Position numbers and translations under genes: made by a program
In this document: positions 48,532 through 53,370 of the stretch, piece by piece
Numbering within the stretch: the first letter of the stretch is position 1
Layout of the letters: each line of letters begins with the position of its first letter
NCBI GenBank assembly: GCA_964473925.1
Contig: CAYYVW010000001.1
Span: 38,974-102,973, forward strand
Source: an uncultured Verrucomicrobiaceae bacterium
GTDB lineage: Bacteria; Verrucomicrobiota; Verrucomicrobiia; Methylacidiphilales; CAYYVW01
Direction of reading: 5' to 3'
Length of the DNA stretch: 64,000 nt
The notes under the pieces: generated by a model
Seen by the model: only the letters and a program-made list of their open reading frames with translations
Databases searched by the model: none
What the model was told of the DNA's origin: nothing

Positions 48532-48652
48532 ACGGATTTGTTCTTTTCAAGTACCGCTAATCGGCAAAATCGTAAACTAGATTAATTAATTTTTCTTTAT
48601 TTGTGCGGTGTCGGGTGGTTGATTGACCGACAGCCGAGGTTCCGGCCTATTT

Positions 48653-50044
48653 ATGGCAGCGCAACTAAATAAGTTACACTCGCTTTTCCCGGCGGGAGTT
48701 CTCTTGACCCAACCCGAAGAGCTGGCTGCCTACAGCTACGATGGAACGCCCGGCCTGCGTCAGTTGCCTGCGGCAGTCGTGATGGCCGAAAATGAGGAAC
48801 AGATTATCGCACTGCTCCAATGGGCCAACCGCACGCGCACGCCTATTGTGCCGCGAGGGTCGGGGACAGGCCTTTCAGGAGGGAGCGTTCCCACTCCGGG
48901 GAGTGTGGTCTTATGTACGGCACGCATGAATCGAATTCTAGAGGTGGATGCGGGTAATTTGACGCTGCTGGCGGAAGCGGGAGCGACAACACAAGCTGTC
49001 GCAGATGCCGCGCAGGCAGCCGGGCTTTTTTATCCGCCGGATCCGGGCTCAATCAAGATTGCGACCATTGGGGGCAACGTGGCCGAAAATAGCGGCGGCT
49101 TGCGCGGCCTCAAGTACGGCGTCACGCGCGATTACATCCTGGCATTGGACGTTGTGCTTCCAACAGGAGAAGCAACGCGGCTTGGTACCGCATGCGTTAA
49201 GGATGTGGCTGGCTTTTCGCTCAAAGATCTCTTTATCGGCTCGGAAGGGCTTTTGGGAATCGTGACGCGCGTTCTGGTCAAATTAATCCCGCCGCCGCAG
49301 GCTCGGCAAACACTTTTGGCGACGTACTCGACGATGAAAGCGGCGGCACAAACTGCATCGGCGATTCTTGCCGCTAAGATTGTCCCCTGCACGCTGGAGT
49401 TCTTGGATCAAACCACGCTGCGATGTGTTGAAACGTACGCACATGTCGGGTTGCCGATTGAAGCGCAGGCCGTCATTTTAGTTGAAGTCGATGGACATCC
49501 CGCCGCTGTGGAAGAAGAAGCGCGAGCGATTGAAAAAATCGCCGGAGAGCAAGGTGCCTTGAAAGTCCGCCGCGCACAAAATGCGGTGGAGGCAACGCAA
49601 CTGGCAACCGCTCGTCGTAGCGCGCTCGCAGCGCTGGCGCATGTCGCACCCACTACGATTTTAGAAGATGTAACAGTGCCGCGCACCCACTTGGCAGAGA
49701 TGGTGGAGTTTATTCAAAAAATATCGATTCAGTATAAAGTCACGATCGGTACGTTCGGACATTTCGGCGATGGCAATCTGCATCCCACCTTCCTCACAAA
49801 TGAAAAAAATCTGGAGGAAATGGAGCGGGTTGAAAAAGCGATGGCCGCGATCTTTGAGCATGCCCTCGCGCTTGGTGGCACGATCACGGGCGAACATGGC
49901 GTGGGGCTCGCGAAGAAAAAATTCCTCAAGCAGCAACTTTCTCCTGCCGCGTTCAAGCTCACGCGCGAACTTAAAAAAGCGATGGATCCCAATGGAATCC
50001 TCAACCCGGGCAAAATTTACGACGCTGCAATGCCAGCAGCTTAA
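48653..50044 (+). CDS. glcD: FAD-linked oxidase, GlcD/D-lactate dehydrogenase family
   Basis: PRGSGTGLSGG, YPPDPGS, GGNVAENSGG..GLKYG, GSEGLLG, HFGDGNLH, GEHGVG, LNPGK. Confidence 0.88.
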   Translation: MAAQLNKLHSLFPAGVLLTQPEELAAYSYDGTPGLRQLPAAVVMAENEEQIIALLQWANRTRTPIVPRGSGTGLSGGSVPTPGSVVLCTARMNRILEVDAGNLTLLAEAGATTQAVADAAQAAGLFYPPDPGSIKIATIGGNVAENSGGLRGLKYGVTRDYILALDVVLPTGEATRLGTACVKDVAGFSLKDLFIGSEGLLGIVTRVLVKLIPPPQARQTLLATYSTMKAAAQTASAILAAKIVPCTLEFLDQTTLRCVETYAHVGLPIEAQAVILVEVDGHPAAVEEEARAIEKIAGEQGALKVRRAQNAVEATQLATARRSALAALAHVAPTTILEDVTVPRTHLAEMVEFIQKISIQYKVTIGTFGHFGDGNLHPTFLTNEKNLEEMERVEKAMAAIFEHALALGGTITGEHGVGLAKKKFLKQQLSPAAFKLTRELKKAMDPNGILNPGKIYDAAMPAA

Positions 50045-51012
50045 ACCTGGGAGGCGACGCTTTCGGCTTCTTGTGTTTCAAGCTCTTCGTCACGCGGGTA
50101 GAGCTGCCGGACAATGGTCTGCATATCGAGAGCGGTATGATGCAGTTTTTCTGCTGCCGTATTCAAATGCTCGGCGTATTTAGATAGCGGATGTTCAGAG
50201 CTGATCTCACGGCTCAGTAAAAAAGAATATCCCATGAGGGCCGTCATGTGATTATTTAGGTCATGTAGCTTGCCGCGAAGCTGTTGGCCTAGTGGATCGG
50301 TTGCCGGCTTTTTTTCAGAATCCAAGCATGCGGCTGCGAGCTTCCAGTCTTCGGGATTGGTTACTTTGAGATTGGAAGCTTGATGCGTCACGATTTGCAC
50401 CGGATATCCCGCGGCTTCGGCAGCGGCGGTGTCATCGGTGACAATGCCGCCGCCTTTGCGCACAGCGGCATATCCTTCTGCCAGCACGGATCTGCGGAAA
50501 ATTTGCGGCGTCTGCACGGCCCAAATTTTACTCCGATCGACGGTACGGACGACGCGGCCATCAGCGGCTGCTTCTTTGAGCGTATCGGTGGAGGGACATC
50601 CGCAGACCGCGGCTCCATGTTCTTGGGCTGCGGCGAAGATTTTCTCGACGAGCTCGGGATTGACGAGCGGCCGAGCGGCGTCATGGATGAGCACATACTC
50701 GGCATTTGGCGAAATCGCACTGAGACCGGCTTGGACAGAATCTTGCCGGTCTTTCCCGCCATGCACGAATTTGCAGGGGATAGAGCTTTTAGACAGATTC
50801 AGAGCGGAGCGCAAAATTTCTTCCGTATCGGGGCGTACGACCACGACCAGTTCGGAGATCAACGACGAAAGCAGGAGCCGCTCGATTGTCAAAGCCACTA
50901 AGGGCCGCCCGAGCACGGGAGTTGTGATTTTATCAAAACCCATCCGACGGCTGGAACCTGCCGCAACAATGACGGCGGCGAGTGAAGGAGCGGCGCTGGT
51001 CTTTTTCGTCAT
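50041..51012 (-). CDS. ispD: IspD (MEP cytidylyltransferase) with C-terminal HisKA/DHp-like extension
   Basis: AAGSSRRMG, GGKDRQDSV, IHDAARP, QTPQ, TDD, NLKVT.PED; then LHDLNNHMTALMGYS H-box-like segment. Confidence 0.93.
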   Translation of the reverse strand: MTKKTSAAPSLAAVIVAAGSSRRMGFDKITTPVLGRPLVALTIERLLLSSLISELVVVVRPDTEEILRSALNLSKSSIPCKFVHGGKDRQDSVQAGLSAISPNAEYVLIHDAARPLVNPELVEKIFAAAQEHGAAVCGCPSTDTLKEAAADGRVVRTVDRSKIWAVQTPQIFRRSVLAEGYAAVRKGGGIVTDDTAAAEAAGYPVQIVTHQASNLKVTNPEDWKLAAACLDSEKKPATDPLGQQLRGKLHDLNNHMTALMGYSFLLSREISSEHPLSKYAEHLNTAAEKLHHTALDMQTIVRQLYPRDEELETQEAESVASQV

Positions 51013-51054: not shown

Positions 51055-51819
51055 TCAGCGCCTTTTTTGAGATTTTTCTTTATCTTTATCGGCTGAATCT
51101 GAATAGAAAAGAACGCCGTGCTCGCGCAAGTTGCTTACAAACGCTGCAAGATCGGCCGAAAGCTTTGGATCATTAAGCAGGCGCCCAAAACCGCTCTTGG
51201 TCGAGTCAACTTTGGTCAGCAGGCCATCGACGCGGCCCAGGATGCTGCGCAAATGTTTGATGGATTGCCGCAAATCTTCCGCGGTGGCATCGGTAAGAAT
51301 ATCACGATTGAGGCGGCTGATGAATTCTTGAAGCTGCCCGGCGATTACATTGGCCTTGTCGAGCAACGGCTTGGAGCCTTCCGTCAAATCTGCCAAGCCG
51401 GGCGTGCGGTATCCTTGAATGCGATCTCCCGCCTGCAGAAAGGGAGGCTCGGCTTCACCCGGAACCAGAGCGCGGGCCTGGACGTCCACAAAGCGGTCTC
51501 CTAACAGGCCGGAGGAACCGATGACAAACTTGGCATTTTGGCGGATTTTAACTTCCTCATGAATGGTCAGCCATACTTCCACCGCGCGCCCCTCATCGAT
51601 GACAACTGGCGGATGCATCACCCGTCCAACGGGTGCGCCGGCATAGAGGACGCTTGAGCCTTTGAGCAATCCGCTGGCATTCTCAAACGTAACGGCAATC
51701 GCATATGAGTTGCGCCAGGATTCTCCAACTCGGCCGAACATCACGATGAGGGCGGCGATGATCGCCAAACCGGCCAGGAGGAAAAATCCTACGCGAGTTT
51801 CGAGGTGCTTGGCTTGCAT
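51055..51819 (-). CDS. MlaD/MCE family protein
   Basis: N-terminal TM, F.NASGL..GS.V.YAG..VG.V, SSGLLGDRFVD. Confidence 0.9.
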   Translation of the reverse strand: MQAKHLETRVGFFLLAGLAIIAALIVMFGRVGESWRNSYAIAVTFENASGLLKGSSVLYAGAPVGRVMHPPVVIDEGRAVEVWLTIHEEVKIRQNAKFVIGSSGLLGDRFVDVQARALVPGEAEPPFLQAGDRIQGYRTPGLADLTEGSKPLLDKANVIAGQLQEFISRLNRDILTDATAEDLRQSIKHLRSILGRVDGLLTKVDSTKSGFGRLLNDPKLSADLAAFVSNLREHGVLFYSDSADKDKEKSQKRR

Positions 51820-51912
51820 GGAAAAAACAATGCCGCCTCTTCCTTTAAAACGGCGGTCAAGGAGTAGGATGCCTCCCGCAGATGGCTTCGGGCAATCGAA
51901 AAAACAGATCTT

Positions 51913-53370
51913 TTATCCGCGAGCCTGCGCTTCAAAATCTCGGTACATTTCACCCATGACGTGGGGTCGACGCAAACGCAAATACCAAAACCAAAGCATT
52001 CCACCCGCCAGCCATGCCACGAAGACATAGGGCAGATAGCACAGCGGCGGAGGCGGGACGGGATAGAGGCTGCCAATCAGGGGGGCCAGCAGAAAAGCGA
52101 TCGCTAGTACGGACATTATTACAGCTTTACCGACGGGTCGTTTTTGTTTCCGGAAATAAATTGGCGATGCGATGCAAACGAGCAGGTAAGAGAAAATCAG
52201 GCCCAGCATCCCGATCGTTCCGAACCATGTTACAATTGTAAGCAACTTCACTCCTGCCAGAAAGAGTCCCAAGAAAAGGCCCAGCCCTAGCACGCATATC
52301 CCGGCCAGCGCGACATGCGGTGTCGCATTGACCGCGTGAGCGTTTCCGGCTGCCCGGAGGGCGAGCCCATGCCGCGCCATCGCAAAGATGAGTCGCGATC
52401 CGGCATTTAAGAAAGCGAGACTCGCCGCAAAGAGGCTGATCGCCGCGCCCAGCGTGATGAAGTGCCCCAAGATCGGAGCGCCCGCCAGCGCGGCAAGATT
52501 ATTGAGCGGTGCTTCCATTTTATCCAGTGACGGCGTGTGATCTCGAAAAGCCGCCACCATCGCATACGAAGTGAACACAAAAAACGGCCCTGTCAGCAGC
52601 ACGGAGTAAAGGATCACGCGCGGGACCGTTTTATGCGGCAGCTTGGCCTCATGCCCGAGCGTTGCGGCGCTTTCAAATCCGCCGAAGCTGAGGAACGCAA
52701 GCGTCAAGCCCAACCCAAAGCCCGGTAGCGTAATATTCTCCAGAAAAAGCTGAGACGAATCGATCAGCTCGCCCGGTCCAAGAAAAAAGAACAGAATCAA
52801 CAAAAGGACAACCCCGATGGAAACCAGCTCCAGCAGCAGCATCAATCGCGTTGAAAAACGAATATCCTTATAGGTGATAAGCCAGAGCAATCCCGTGGTC
52901 AGCACTGCCAGAACAACAATGCCAGTGGAATTCAAATTCCAACCGAGCGCGTTATGTAGGAAGGCTTTGATAAAAATCGCAATGATCGCGAGGTTCGCCG
53001 GCAAGGCTAATAGGTACATCGTCAAGCCGGACCAGCCGGTAAATGCCCCCCAAAATGGGCCCATTCCTCGGCCCACAAAAGTGTAGAGCGCACCGGGAGA
53101 GCTTTGAGCTCGCGCAAACTGGTTAATGTGCCAGGCGACGAGCAAAACGGCGCAAGTTGCAAAAGCGTATGCCAGCCACGTCGCATTCCCAGCGATTCCA
53201 AATACCAGCGCAACCGCGATTGCAGGGGTTGCCGTGGGGGAAATTGCGGCAACGGATTGGGCGAGGACCTCCCAGAGCGAGAGAACTTGCGCGCGGAGAT
53301 ACGGCCTCCGAGCATTCCCTGCCGCTTCCATCCGACGACTATTTAAGCCTGTTTTTGGATTGGCAAGCAC
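51913..53370 (-). CDS. APC family amino-acid permease
   Basis: AAISPT, FLSFGGFESAATLGHE, SRLIFAMAR; about 12 TM segments. Confidence 0.9.
   Translation of the reverse strand: MLANPKTGLNSRRMEAAGNARRPYLRAQVLSLWEVLAQSVAAISPTATPAIAVALVFGIAGNATWLAYAFATCAVLLVAWHINQFARAQSSPGALYTFVGRGMGPFWGAFTGWSGLTMYLLALPANLAIIAIFIKAFLHNALGWNLNSTGIVVLAVLTTGLLWLITYKDIRFSTRLMLLLELVSIGVVLLLILFFFLGPGELIDSSQLFLENITLPGFGLGLTLAFLSFGGFESAATLGHEAKLPHKTVPRVILYSVLLTGPFFVFTSYAMVAAFRDHTPSLDKMEAPLNNLAALAGAPILGHFITLGAAISLFAASLAFLNAGSRLIFAMARHGLALRAAGNAHAVNATPHVALAGICVLGLGLFLGLFLAGVKLLTIVTWFGTIGMLGLIFSYLLVCIASPIYFRKQKRPVGKAVIMSVLAIAFLLAPLIGSLYPVPPPPLCYLPYVFVAWLAGGMLWFWYLRLRRPHVMGEMYRDFEAQARG

Follow-up and report, generated by a model that had tools for sequence, protein, structure and literature searches.

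Why should IspD, an essential enzyme of isoprenoid synthesis, end in a stalk that resembles part of a histidine kinase? This question is raised by one gene in a window of 64,000 nucleotides (the whole stretch of DNA analysed here) from a soil-type Verrucomicrobiota bacterium. IspD is a homodimer that converts CTP and MEP into CDP-ME and PPi, and little is understood of how bacteria control the MEP pathway at the post-translational level. An original prediction held that a complete IspD continues in frame into a stand-alone histidine-phosphoacceptor (DHp) domain, and that a phosphorelay may thereby regulate, or be informed by, flux through the MEP pathway. Our analysis confirmed the architecture: the fusion joins IspD to a histidine-carrying HisKA-type DHp stalk, and the kinase (CA) domain is absent. 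The gene is a single ORF, read from 51012 to 50041 and encoding 323 amino acids (Table 1), with no stop across the 92 residues in which IspD runs on into the tail, and its stop codon shares nucleotides with that of a convergent FAD-oxidase gene. Since an identical protein is present in two independent Logan run assemblies and the fusion is conserved in relatives, an assembly artefact or a read-through was ruled out.

Table 1. Features of the ispD-DHp locus, in window coordinates
Feature	Coordinates	Strand	Basis
Terminator-like hairpin, upstream of mlaD	51854-51832		
mlaD-like gene, directly upstream of ispD-DHp, 42-nt gap	51055..51819	-	PF02470 MlaD
Whole ispD-DHp gene, 323 codons + stop	50041..51012	-	ORF list and translation
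IspD (MEP cytidylyltransferase) domain, residues 12-231	50320..50979	-	PF01128, TIGR00453, AlphaFold model
Linker, residues 232-239 (LDSEKKPA), Pro/Gly-rich	50296..50319	-	Alignment A1, pLDDT dip
DHp helix alpha-1, residues 240-269, H-box LRGKLHDLNNHMTALMGYSFLL	50206..50295	-	AlphaFold helix, invariant residues
His250 codon, putative phospho-acceptor	50263..50265	-	CAT read from sequence
Hairpin loop, residues 270-276	50185..50205	-	Not helical in either AlphaFold model
DHp helix alpha-2, residues 277-304, invariant Arg302	50101..50184	-	AlphaFold helix
Acidic C-terminal extension, residues 305-323, + stop codon	50041..50100	-	Unmatched in alignment

The IspD part is intact by both profile and fold. 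Its match to PF01128 scores 190.9 bits (cutoff 27, E 3.4e-56) over residues 12-231, that to TIGR00453 ispD 216.6 bits (cutoff 181.3), and the predicted completeness of the enzyme is thus borne out. The AlphaFold model of the full protein (pLDDT 88.9) matches IspD crystal structures with a Foldseek E of 8e-24 and a target TM of 0.92-0.93, and the family alignment shows no variation in the glycine-rich AAGxSxRMGFDK loop, in DAARP or at K216, which points indirectly to catalytic activity. The linker that follows is poorly conserved and carries indels across relatives (alignment A1), with pLDDT falling to 68 over block 231-240. At the other end of the tail, 19 residues remain after alpha-2; this extension is not conserved, and relatives mostly stop about five residues past alpha-2 (302 aa). 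A C-terminal partner on IspD is also seen in IspDF (NF006899), a model that the window IspD matches over residues 9-234, but with a score of 151.7, far below the cutoff of 417. Moreover, the partner in IspDF is IspF, the next-but-one enzyme of the pathway, whereas here it is a signalling module.

Profile comparisons indicate that the HisKA-type DHp hairpin in the roughly 70 C-terminal residues is genuine rather than a chance likeness. Aligned by hhalign to the HisKA DHp of "HDFNN"-type hybrid histidine kinases, the tail matches at 99.1% (E 5.3e-19) over 68 columns and both helices, which agrees with the predicted likeness of its H-box to that of hybrid kinases. The HisKA profile (PF00512) gives 18.8 bits on the whole window protein and 21.6-22.4 bits on the tail alone (21.6 bits corresponding to E 2e-4), short of the gathering cutoff of 26.9; it matches 20 of 24 family tails (best E 7.8e-8), some relatives exceed the Pfam threshold, and about ten carry a precomputed PF00512 annotation. 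Searched against 1.8 billion proteins, the tail alone recovers the PF00512 region of PAS-HisKA-HATPase-Rec kinases at E 4e-5 to 1e-3. In a PDB profile search, histidine-kinase DHps were the only matches, the best by sequence being the GacS DHp of the RetS-GacS complex (7n0e), while a single-sequence PDB search with the tail gave chance matches to ginkbilobin only. His250, whose codon reads CAT at the predicted place (50265-50263), aligns with the phospho-acceptor histidine of both the HisKA profiles and the PDB kinases. The AlphaFold hairpin (pLDDT 92.9) has as its top Foldseek matches the DHps of ZraS, 6lgq, RetS/GacS and CpxA, and the helix modelled at residues 277-304, with its heptad pattern of hydrophobic residues, corresponds to the second amphipathic helix that had been proposed. 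The HPt profile (PF01627) did not match, as HisKA and HisKA_3 are the only profiles that the tail hits at E <= 10; HATPase_c has no Pfam match at E <= 10 anywhere in the 323-aa protein, as predicted.

The closest counterparts of the tail belong to one specific histidine-kinase subfamily, the "HDFNN"-type PAS hybrid kinases of the CckA-like H-box class, with homology that extends through the loop as well as the two helices. Alpha-1 aligns to the H-box AHDFNNILTAIxGY and R302 pairs with the conserved arginine of the alpha-2 motif FSRKQ; H, D, NN, T, G-Y, the alpha-2 arginine, the hairpin length and the loop and alpha-2 motifs are common to both. These kinases carry HATPase_c and receiver domains, whereas the IspD tail has neither, and an enzyme here takes the position before the DHp that a PAS sensor holds in the kinases. 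Furthermore, where the parent kinases have AGGxAH, the tail has LRKxxH and an invariant arginine at H-4, and the module has thus moved away from a DHp that is competent for kinase activity.

Such a close tie to one subfamily raises the possibility that the tail pairs with the DHp of an "HDFNN" kinase in a heteromer of the RetS-GacS kind, either inhibiting the kinase as a decoy or, as an adaptor, recruiting IspD so that His250 is trans-phosphorylated by the kinase's CA domain. In RetS-GacS the DHp serves as a regulatory interface between proteins, and 7n0e is not only the best PDB sequence match of the tail but also among its top structural matches. The retained acid at H+1 would fit trans-phosphorylation as well, being required for the kinase reaction according to the available text of PMC3510030. 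However, RetS and GacS are complete kinases and the IspD tail is not, its core positions no longer resemble those of the kinases closely (34% identity by hhalign) and the AGG motif is lost, no candidate kinase was found in the window and the four related loci, and tethering to a homodimeric enzyme favours homodimerisation. We therefore regard heteromeric pairing as improbable.

The pattern of conservation indicates which part of the tail has been retained. At an overall identity of 44-62%, all 120 of the full-length relatives listed carry the motif R-x3-H-[DE]-x2-N-x2-T-x3-G; the fusion and its histidine are thus conserved, and the loss of the H-box that would have spoken against the original prediction is not seen. 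Seven tail positions are invariant, among them R246, H250, N254, T257, G261 and L265 in alpha-1, and H250-D251-x-x-N254 has the acid at H+1 and the Asn/Thr at H+4 that define the H-box. In HisKA proteins the former is needed for kinase and the latter for phosphatase chemistry, as the available text of PMC3510030 has it. Mean column identity is 51% in the tail versus 48% in IspD, so that the tail has not changed more quickly than the enzyme. The hydrophobic residues of the tail, including those of alpha-2, follow a 4-3 heptad, and heptad analysis places H250, N254, T257 and G261 at exposed b/f positions outside the core. Since a hairpin that served dimerisation only would let such polar residues drift, their invariance argues for a retained functional surface.

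This bears on the simplest alternative, a purely structural role in which the hairpin would only hold the IspD dimer together more firmly or assemble it into higher oligomers, and the H-box is kept for packing or solubility, with neither phosphoryl chemistry nor a signalling partner. IspD is already dimeric, the DHp is by nature a dimerisation domain, and no CA domain or two-component neighbour was found in the protein, the window or the related loci. A near-invariant cysteine at H+40 also fits simple packing, as it occupies a core position and is a leucine in the window protein; for these same two reasons we rejected a role for it as a metal or redox ligand together with His250. Against a structural role stand the polar character of the invariant residues at b/f positions and their match to exactly those residues that serve HisKA in catalysis and docking, as given in the available text of PMC3510030. 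From the origin of the clade onwards these residues have stayed the same in the 120 listed sequences, while a structural coiled coil would keep the core and vary them. We consider a purely structural role unlikely, but the most serious of the alternatives.

The distribution of the fusion points to an old and specific association. With the tail of a relative as query, 203 proteins were recovered, and all among the matches listed carry PF01128 (IspD); this type of tail appears, by sequence, to be confined to IspD among those matches. A word search with the window's own tail returned only itself, since no other tail in the family has diverged as far; the family was recovered by full-length searches and by the relative's tail. 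When a tree is built from the IspD part, the fused proteins group in a single Verrucomicrobiota clade (SH-aLRT 95). The tail-less Methylacidiphilaceae branch within this clade, indicating one gain and one loss. The Methylacidiphilaceae kept ispD and dropped the tail, which is compatible with a structural role too; we looked for a remnant after their ispD and found none, so that the tail is dispensable for IspD function. All sources currently annotate the fused proteins as plain IspD. The family is abundant in environmental Verrucomicrobiota, and at least one record is strain-named rather than a MAG: Verrucomicrobia bacterium LW23, which we take to be a cultured isolate.

A loss with no apparent consequence, and a window tail that is the most divergent in its family and bears an additional unconserved extension, might suggest a functionless relic that has persisted neutrally since a kinase fragment was fused to the enzyme. 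Yet a neutral tail of 70 residues would decay or acquire truncating stop codons, and this one is conserved at the level of an essential enzyme domain throughout a deep clade of more than 200 sequence clusters, with its invariant positions. These conservation data effectively refute a relic, which we judge extremely improbable.

The gene neighbourhood was examined for clues to function. The mlaD-like gene and ispD-DHp are probably co-transcribed, and mlaD and ispD are adjacent in every related locus examined, including tail-less ones. The synteny mlaE-mlaF-mlaD-ispD was considered as a clue to tail function and set aside: tail-less Methylacidimicrobium loci have the same order, and it is therefore uninformative about the tail. 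No kinase, receiver or HPt gene was found within about 8-10 kb in the window and four related loci. A split kinase with its CA gene downstream was also rejected, as the downstream genes vary by locus and none encodes a HATPase in the window or the related loci.

With moderate confidence, we favour a reading in which the tail forms a CA-less dimer that docks a receiver domain and acts as a phosphotransfer module or as a phosphatase. The gene product would comprise a predicted active IspD, a flexible linker of about ten residues and a tethered HisKA-type DHp hairpin, presumably derived from an "HDFNN"-type hybrid histidine kinase by loss of its CA (ATPase) and receiver domains. As IspD is homodimeric, we infer that its two hairpins come together as the usual four-helix bundle, whose outer face would display His250 and the stripe of D251, N254, T257 and G261; the docking of a receiver, phosphorylation and whatever these would change in IspD or in signalling are inferred likewise. 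Lacking the kinase engine, the module would be incapable of autophosphorylation, and its chemistry would most likely involve a receiver (Rec) domain encoded elsewhere. This could be a reversible transfer between His~P and Asp~P, as in ChpT, Spo0B or HPt proteins, or the dephosphorylation of Rec~P by way of the H+4 asparagine; either would physically tie an essential isoprenoid enzyme to a two-component pathway. The H-box could also have been conserved for binding that involves no phosphoryl chemistry.

Known systems offer partial parallels to such a module. ChpT of Caulobacter and Spo0B of Bacillus likewise have a kinase-derived DHp, do not autophosphorylate and have to exchange phosphate with receivers. 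EnvZ domain A, also a DHp lacking CA and with receiver-directed chemistry, is reportedly an OmpR~P phosphatase in work from the Inouye laboratory, but it is an engineered fragment and not a natural fusion. According to the available text of PMC3433190, ChpT and Spo0B are free-standing relay proteins whose DHp is followed by a degenerate alpha/beta domain resembling CA. The IspD fusion, in contrast, has nothing of this kind after its DHp and has a metabolic enzyme as partner, and any phosphotransfer by it is putative. By domain layout it falls outside the Spo0B/ChpT family, although it may work in a similar way, and the earlier term "stand-alone" fits the tail only loosely, as it has no CA-like remnant at all.

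The further step of the original prediction, a phosphorelay coupled to MEP flux, would place IspD in the position of the PAS sensor: occupancy of the active site by MEP, CTP or CDP-ME would gate the access of a receiver to His250, so that the CA-less DHp reports flux into a phosphorelay, or His250~P would throttle IspD. If true, this would be the first "trigger-enzyme" node in which a histidine-kinase stalk had been built onto an essential enzyme of isoprenoid synthesis. We find it doubtful, since the linker is flexible and unconserved, which makes tight allosteric coupling to IspD unlikely, the tail was lost in Methylacidiphilaceae, and the window and four related loci have no kinase, receiver or HPt gene nearby. 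The DHp hairpin with its invariant H-box, the absent CA domain and the conserved fusion have thus held up; the link to MEP flux is hypothetical.

Most of what is known of CA-less DHp modules comes from a small number of proteins dedicated to relays, such as Spo0B and ChpT. Our literature search found no paper joining IspD to HisKA or DHp in a relevant sense; the IspD-DHp fusion is apparently undescribed, as had been supposed, and it may link phosphate signalling to isoprenoid synthesis. Overall, our analysis revealed a clade-restricted and conserved fusion of an essential isoprenoid enzyme with a DHp that keeps all hallmark residues of phosphoryl chemistry. It provides a testable entry to the questions of whether two-component signalling reaches central lipid-precursor metabolism directly and of what a DHp can do once its kinase engine is gone. 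The natural "deletion" lineage of the Methylacidiphilaceae, together with the strain-named record, makes both comparative genomics and bench work on this family feasible.

Our analysis showed that the fusion of IspD to a DHp (a HisKA-type histidine-phosphoacceptor hairpin) is real and conserved. The IspD part of the ispD-DHp gene matches Pfam PF01128 with E 3.4e-56 and scores 216.6 bits with NCBIfam TIGR00453 (curated cutoff 181.3), and an AlphaFold model of the window protein based on 38 homologues (mean pLDDT 88.9) superposes on IspD crystal structures (Foldseek E 8e-24, target TM 0.92). The frame then continues without an intervening stop into 92 further residues, the sequence reads CAT for His250 at 50265-50263, and a Pfam search of the window protein found no HATPase_c match even at E <= 10. 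The original prediction of a complete IspD with an in-frame tail, a His250 at codon 50263-50265 and a missing HATPase domain was thus borne out.

The exact window protein was found in two independent run assemblies. A full-length search returned over 100 proteins, each about 302 aa long (93% query coverage, 44-62% identity), which are named solely IspD in the source databases and belong to the Verrucomicrobiota wherever a taxon is recorded, under labels including 'Methylacidiphilales bacterium', 'Verrucomicrobia bacterium LW23' and 'Verrucomicrobium sp.'. The motif R-x3-H-[DE]-x2-N-x2-T-x3-G is present in 120 of the 120 relatives listed, and R246, H250, N254, T257, G261, L265 and R302 are invariant in a 38-sequence alignment. 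On average, columns of the tail are at least as conserved as those of the whole protein (mean identity 51% vs 48%). This conservation effectively excludes the view of the tail as a neutral relic, to which we give almost no weight. Because every match listed in a search from a relative's tail alone (203 matches) carries PF01128, this type of tail appears to be confined to IspD. Among the sequences seen, the sole departure from an acidic residue at H+1 is P0126, a 97-aa fragment of a relative with H-T instead of H-D/E (LLHTVNNQLTP). Unlike most relatives, which have 302 aa, the window protein itself has an extra acidic, unconserved and predicted helical end at residues 305-323 (window 50041-50100, minus strand; DEELETQEAESVASQV); some Verrucomicrobium-like relatives are extended instead by long stretches rich in Ala and Pro, up to about 80 residues.

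The original prediction had also noted a likeness to the H-box of hybrid kinases, which the profile comparisons upheld. The window sequence alone stays below the HisKA Pfam cutoff of 26.9 (18.8 bits for the whole protein, 21.6 bits for the tail), and a single-sequence PDB search with its tail returned only noise. Individually, 20 of 24 family tails matched HisKA (best E 7.8e-8), and a tail profile retrieved only histidine-kinase DHps from the PDB, with His250 lined up against their phospho-acceptor His. When the tail alone was run with HMMER against the whole of a library of 1.8 billion representative proteins, it recovered other IspD tails first and then PAS-HisKA-HATPase-Rec hybrid kinases of 550-1160 aa (library-wide E 4e-5 to 1e-3), in which the matched stretch is exactly the PF00512 domain. 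In hhalign, the tail and kinase-DHp profiles aligned with 99.1% probability (E 5.3e-19) over 68 columns covering both helices and the loop, a figure somewhat inflated because the kinases were drawn from the tail's own matches, yet too large to come from that. AlphaFold places helices at 240-269 and 277-304 with a seven-residue loop between them (pLDDT 92.9 for the tail alone), and the best Foldseek matches are the DHps of ZraS, 6lgq, RetS/GacS, CpxA and ERS1, with weak E-values (0.08-2), as one would expect of a hairpin of only 62 residues. This family-level evidence is decisive for a DHp; by homology, the module belongs to the HisKA family of DHps, although it is not a histidine kinase. Given its kinase relatives, the tail might instead pair with the DHp of a related kinase as a decoy or adaptor, perhaps being phosphorylated in trans; we consider such a role distinctly improbable.

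Both helices carry a hydrophobic 4-3-4-3 heptad (245, 249, 252, 256, 259, 263, 266 and 270 in helix 1; 276, 280, 283, 287, 290, 293/294, 297, 300/301 and 304 in helix 2), which is the signature of a helical-bundle core and would also suit a purely structural tail that clamps the IspD dimer. In that register, however, the b/f positions include H250, N254, T257 and G261, which line up as a single exposed stripe, and exposed polar invariance is not expected for a mere dimerisation element, so that we regard the clamp as rather unlikely. According to PMC3510030, HisKA kinases need an acid at H+1 to carry out the kinase reaction and Asn/Thr at H+4 to act as phosphatases. The pre-His motif L-A-G-G-[IV]-A-H of the parent kinases has become L-R-K-x-x-H in the tails, which places an invariant Arg on the face that bears the His and one turn above it, and the alpha-2 Arg (R302) was kept. 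A Cys at H+40 in 115 of 120 relatives was rejected as a ligand, since its core heptad position and the Leu in the window protein mark it as a packing residue. The linker (residues 232-239) has lower model confidence, and because it is Pro/Gly-rich and variable in length, it is unlikely to provide the rigid coiled-coil coupling by which sensor domains are joined to DHps; the attachment of the DHp to IspD looks like a tether and not an allosteric weld.

Among the sampled species-representative genomes, IspDs outside the fused group are tail-less, including those of three Verrucomicrobiia/Verrucomicrobiales and two Methylacidiphilaceae genomes, and no tail remnant was found 3′ of ispD in the tail-less genomes. 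A tree of the IspD part alone united all fused proteins and the two Methylacidiphilaceae in one clade (SH-aLRT 95) with tail-less Verrucomicrobiales as its sister; the Methylacidiphilaceae form a long branch within a fused subclade (support 97). The simplest history has the tail gained once, at the root of this clade, and lost once later, which makes it old and maintained, yet dispensable for IspD as such.

The hairpin and T-run upstream of mlaD suggest that mlaD-ispD is a bicistronic unit of its own. In relatives, the order mlaE-mlaF-mlaD-ispD, whose genes overlap or almost abut, is a conserved string of this Verrucomicrobiota clade and a possible operon link between lipid transport and isoprenoid precursors, while in the window and strain LW23 mlaD alone still adjoins ispD. 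Since tail-less Methylacidimicrobium loci share this order, the synteny is either older than the tail or unconnected with it and is uninformative about its role. Downstream, the stop codons of ispD-DHp and the convergent FAD-linked oxidase gene overlap at 50041-50044, leaving zero intergenic space; a minus-strand terminator-like hairpin lies within the oxidase coding region. Within 8-10 kb of ispD-DHp, neither the window nor four related loci encode a kinase, a receiver or an HPt protein, and the other window ORFs scanned are housekeeping or transport genes.

Features of the ispD-DHp locus and of related loci (L003, L004, L005, L007 and L008)
Feature	Position	Strand	Remark
ispD-DHp ORF	51012 -> 50041	minus	single open frame, 323 codons
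IspD domain	residues 12-231 of window protein		complete; PF01128, TIGR00453
mlaD-like gene	51055-51819	minus	42 nt upstream of ispD-DHp
Terminator-like hairpin + T-run	51832-51854	minus	between amino-acid permease gene (51913-53370) and mlaD
FAD-linked oxidase gene	48623-50044	plus	convergent
Terminator-like hairpin	50000-49984	minus	
mlaE-mlaF-mlaD-ispD	L003 5627-8909		
mlaE-mlaF-mlaD-ispD	L004 5706-8966		
mlaE-mlaF-mlaD-ispD	L005 5742-8912		
mlaE-mlaF-mlaD-ispD	L007, L008		

Where IspD carries a C-terminal fusion partner, this is usually IspF; here the DHp takes its place. In its proposed working, the tail may come closest to the kinase-derived phosphotransferases ChpT and Spo0B; it does not belong to their group because it lacks a remnant of the CA (HATPase_c ATPase) domain. 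Another kinase-less architecture, an HDLNN-type DHp that has a receiver-like domain directly after it and no CA, was seen in P0140, a 255-aa protein among the weak matches to the tail. The original prediction knew of no description of this fusion, and our full-text literature search likewise found no paper that connects IspD to HisKA or DHp; the existence of the fusion is firmly established, and it has so far gone unstudied. For its role we infer signalling: a dimeric, active IspD would bear a CA-less four-helix DHp bundle that still shows a competent His/Asp-Asn surface and could exchange phosphate with, or dephosphorylate, a receiver domain encoded elsewhere. As a whole, this reading has in our judgement about an even chance of being correct, and information may flow either way, from signalling to IspD or from IspD occupancy to signalling.
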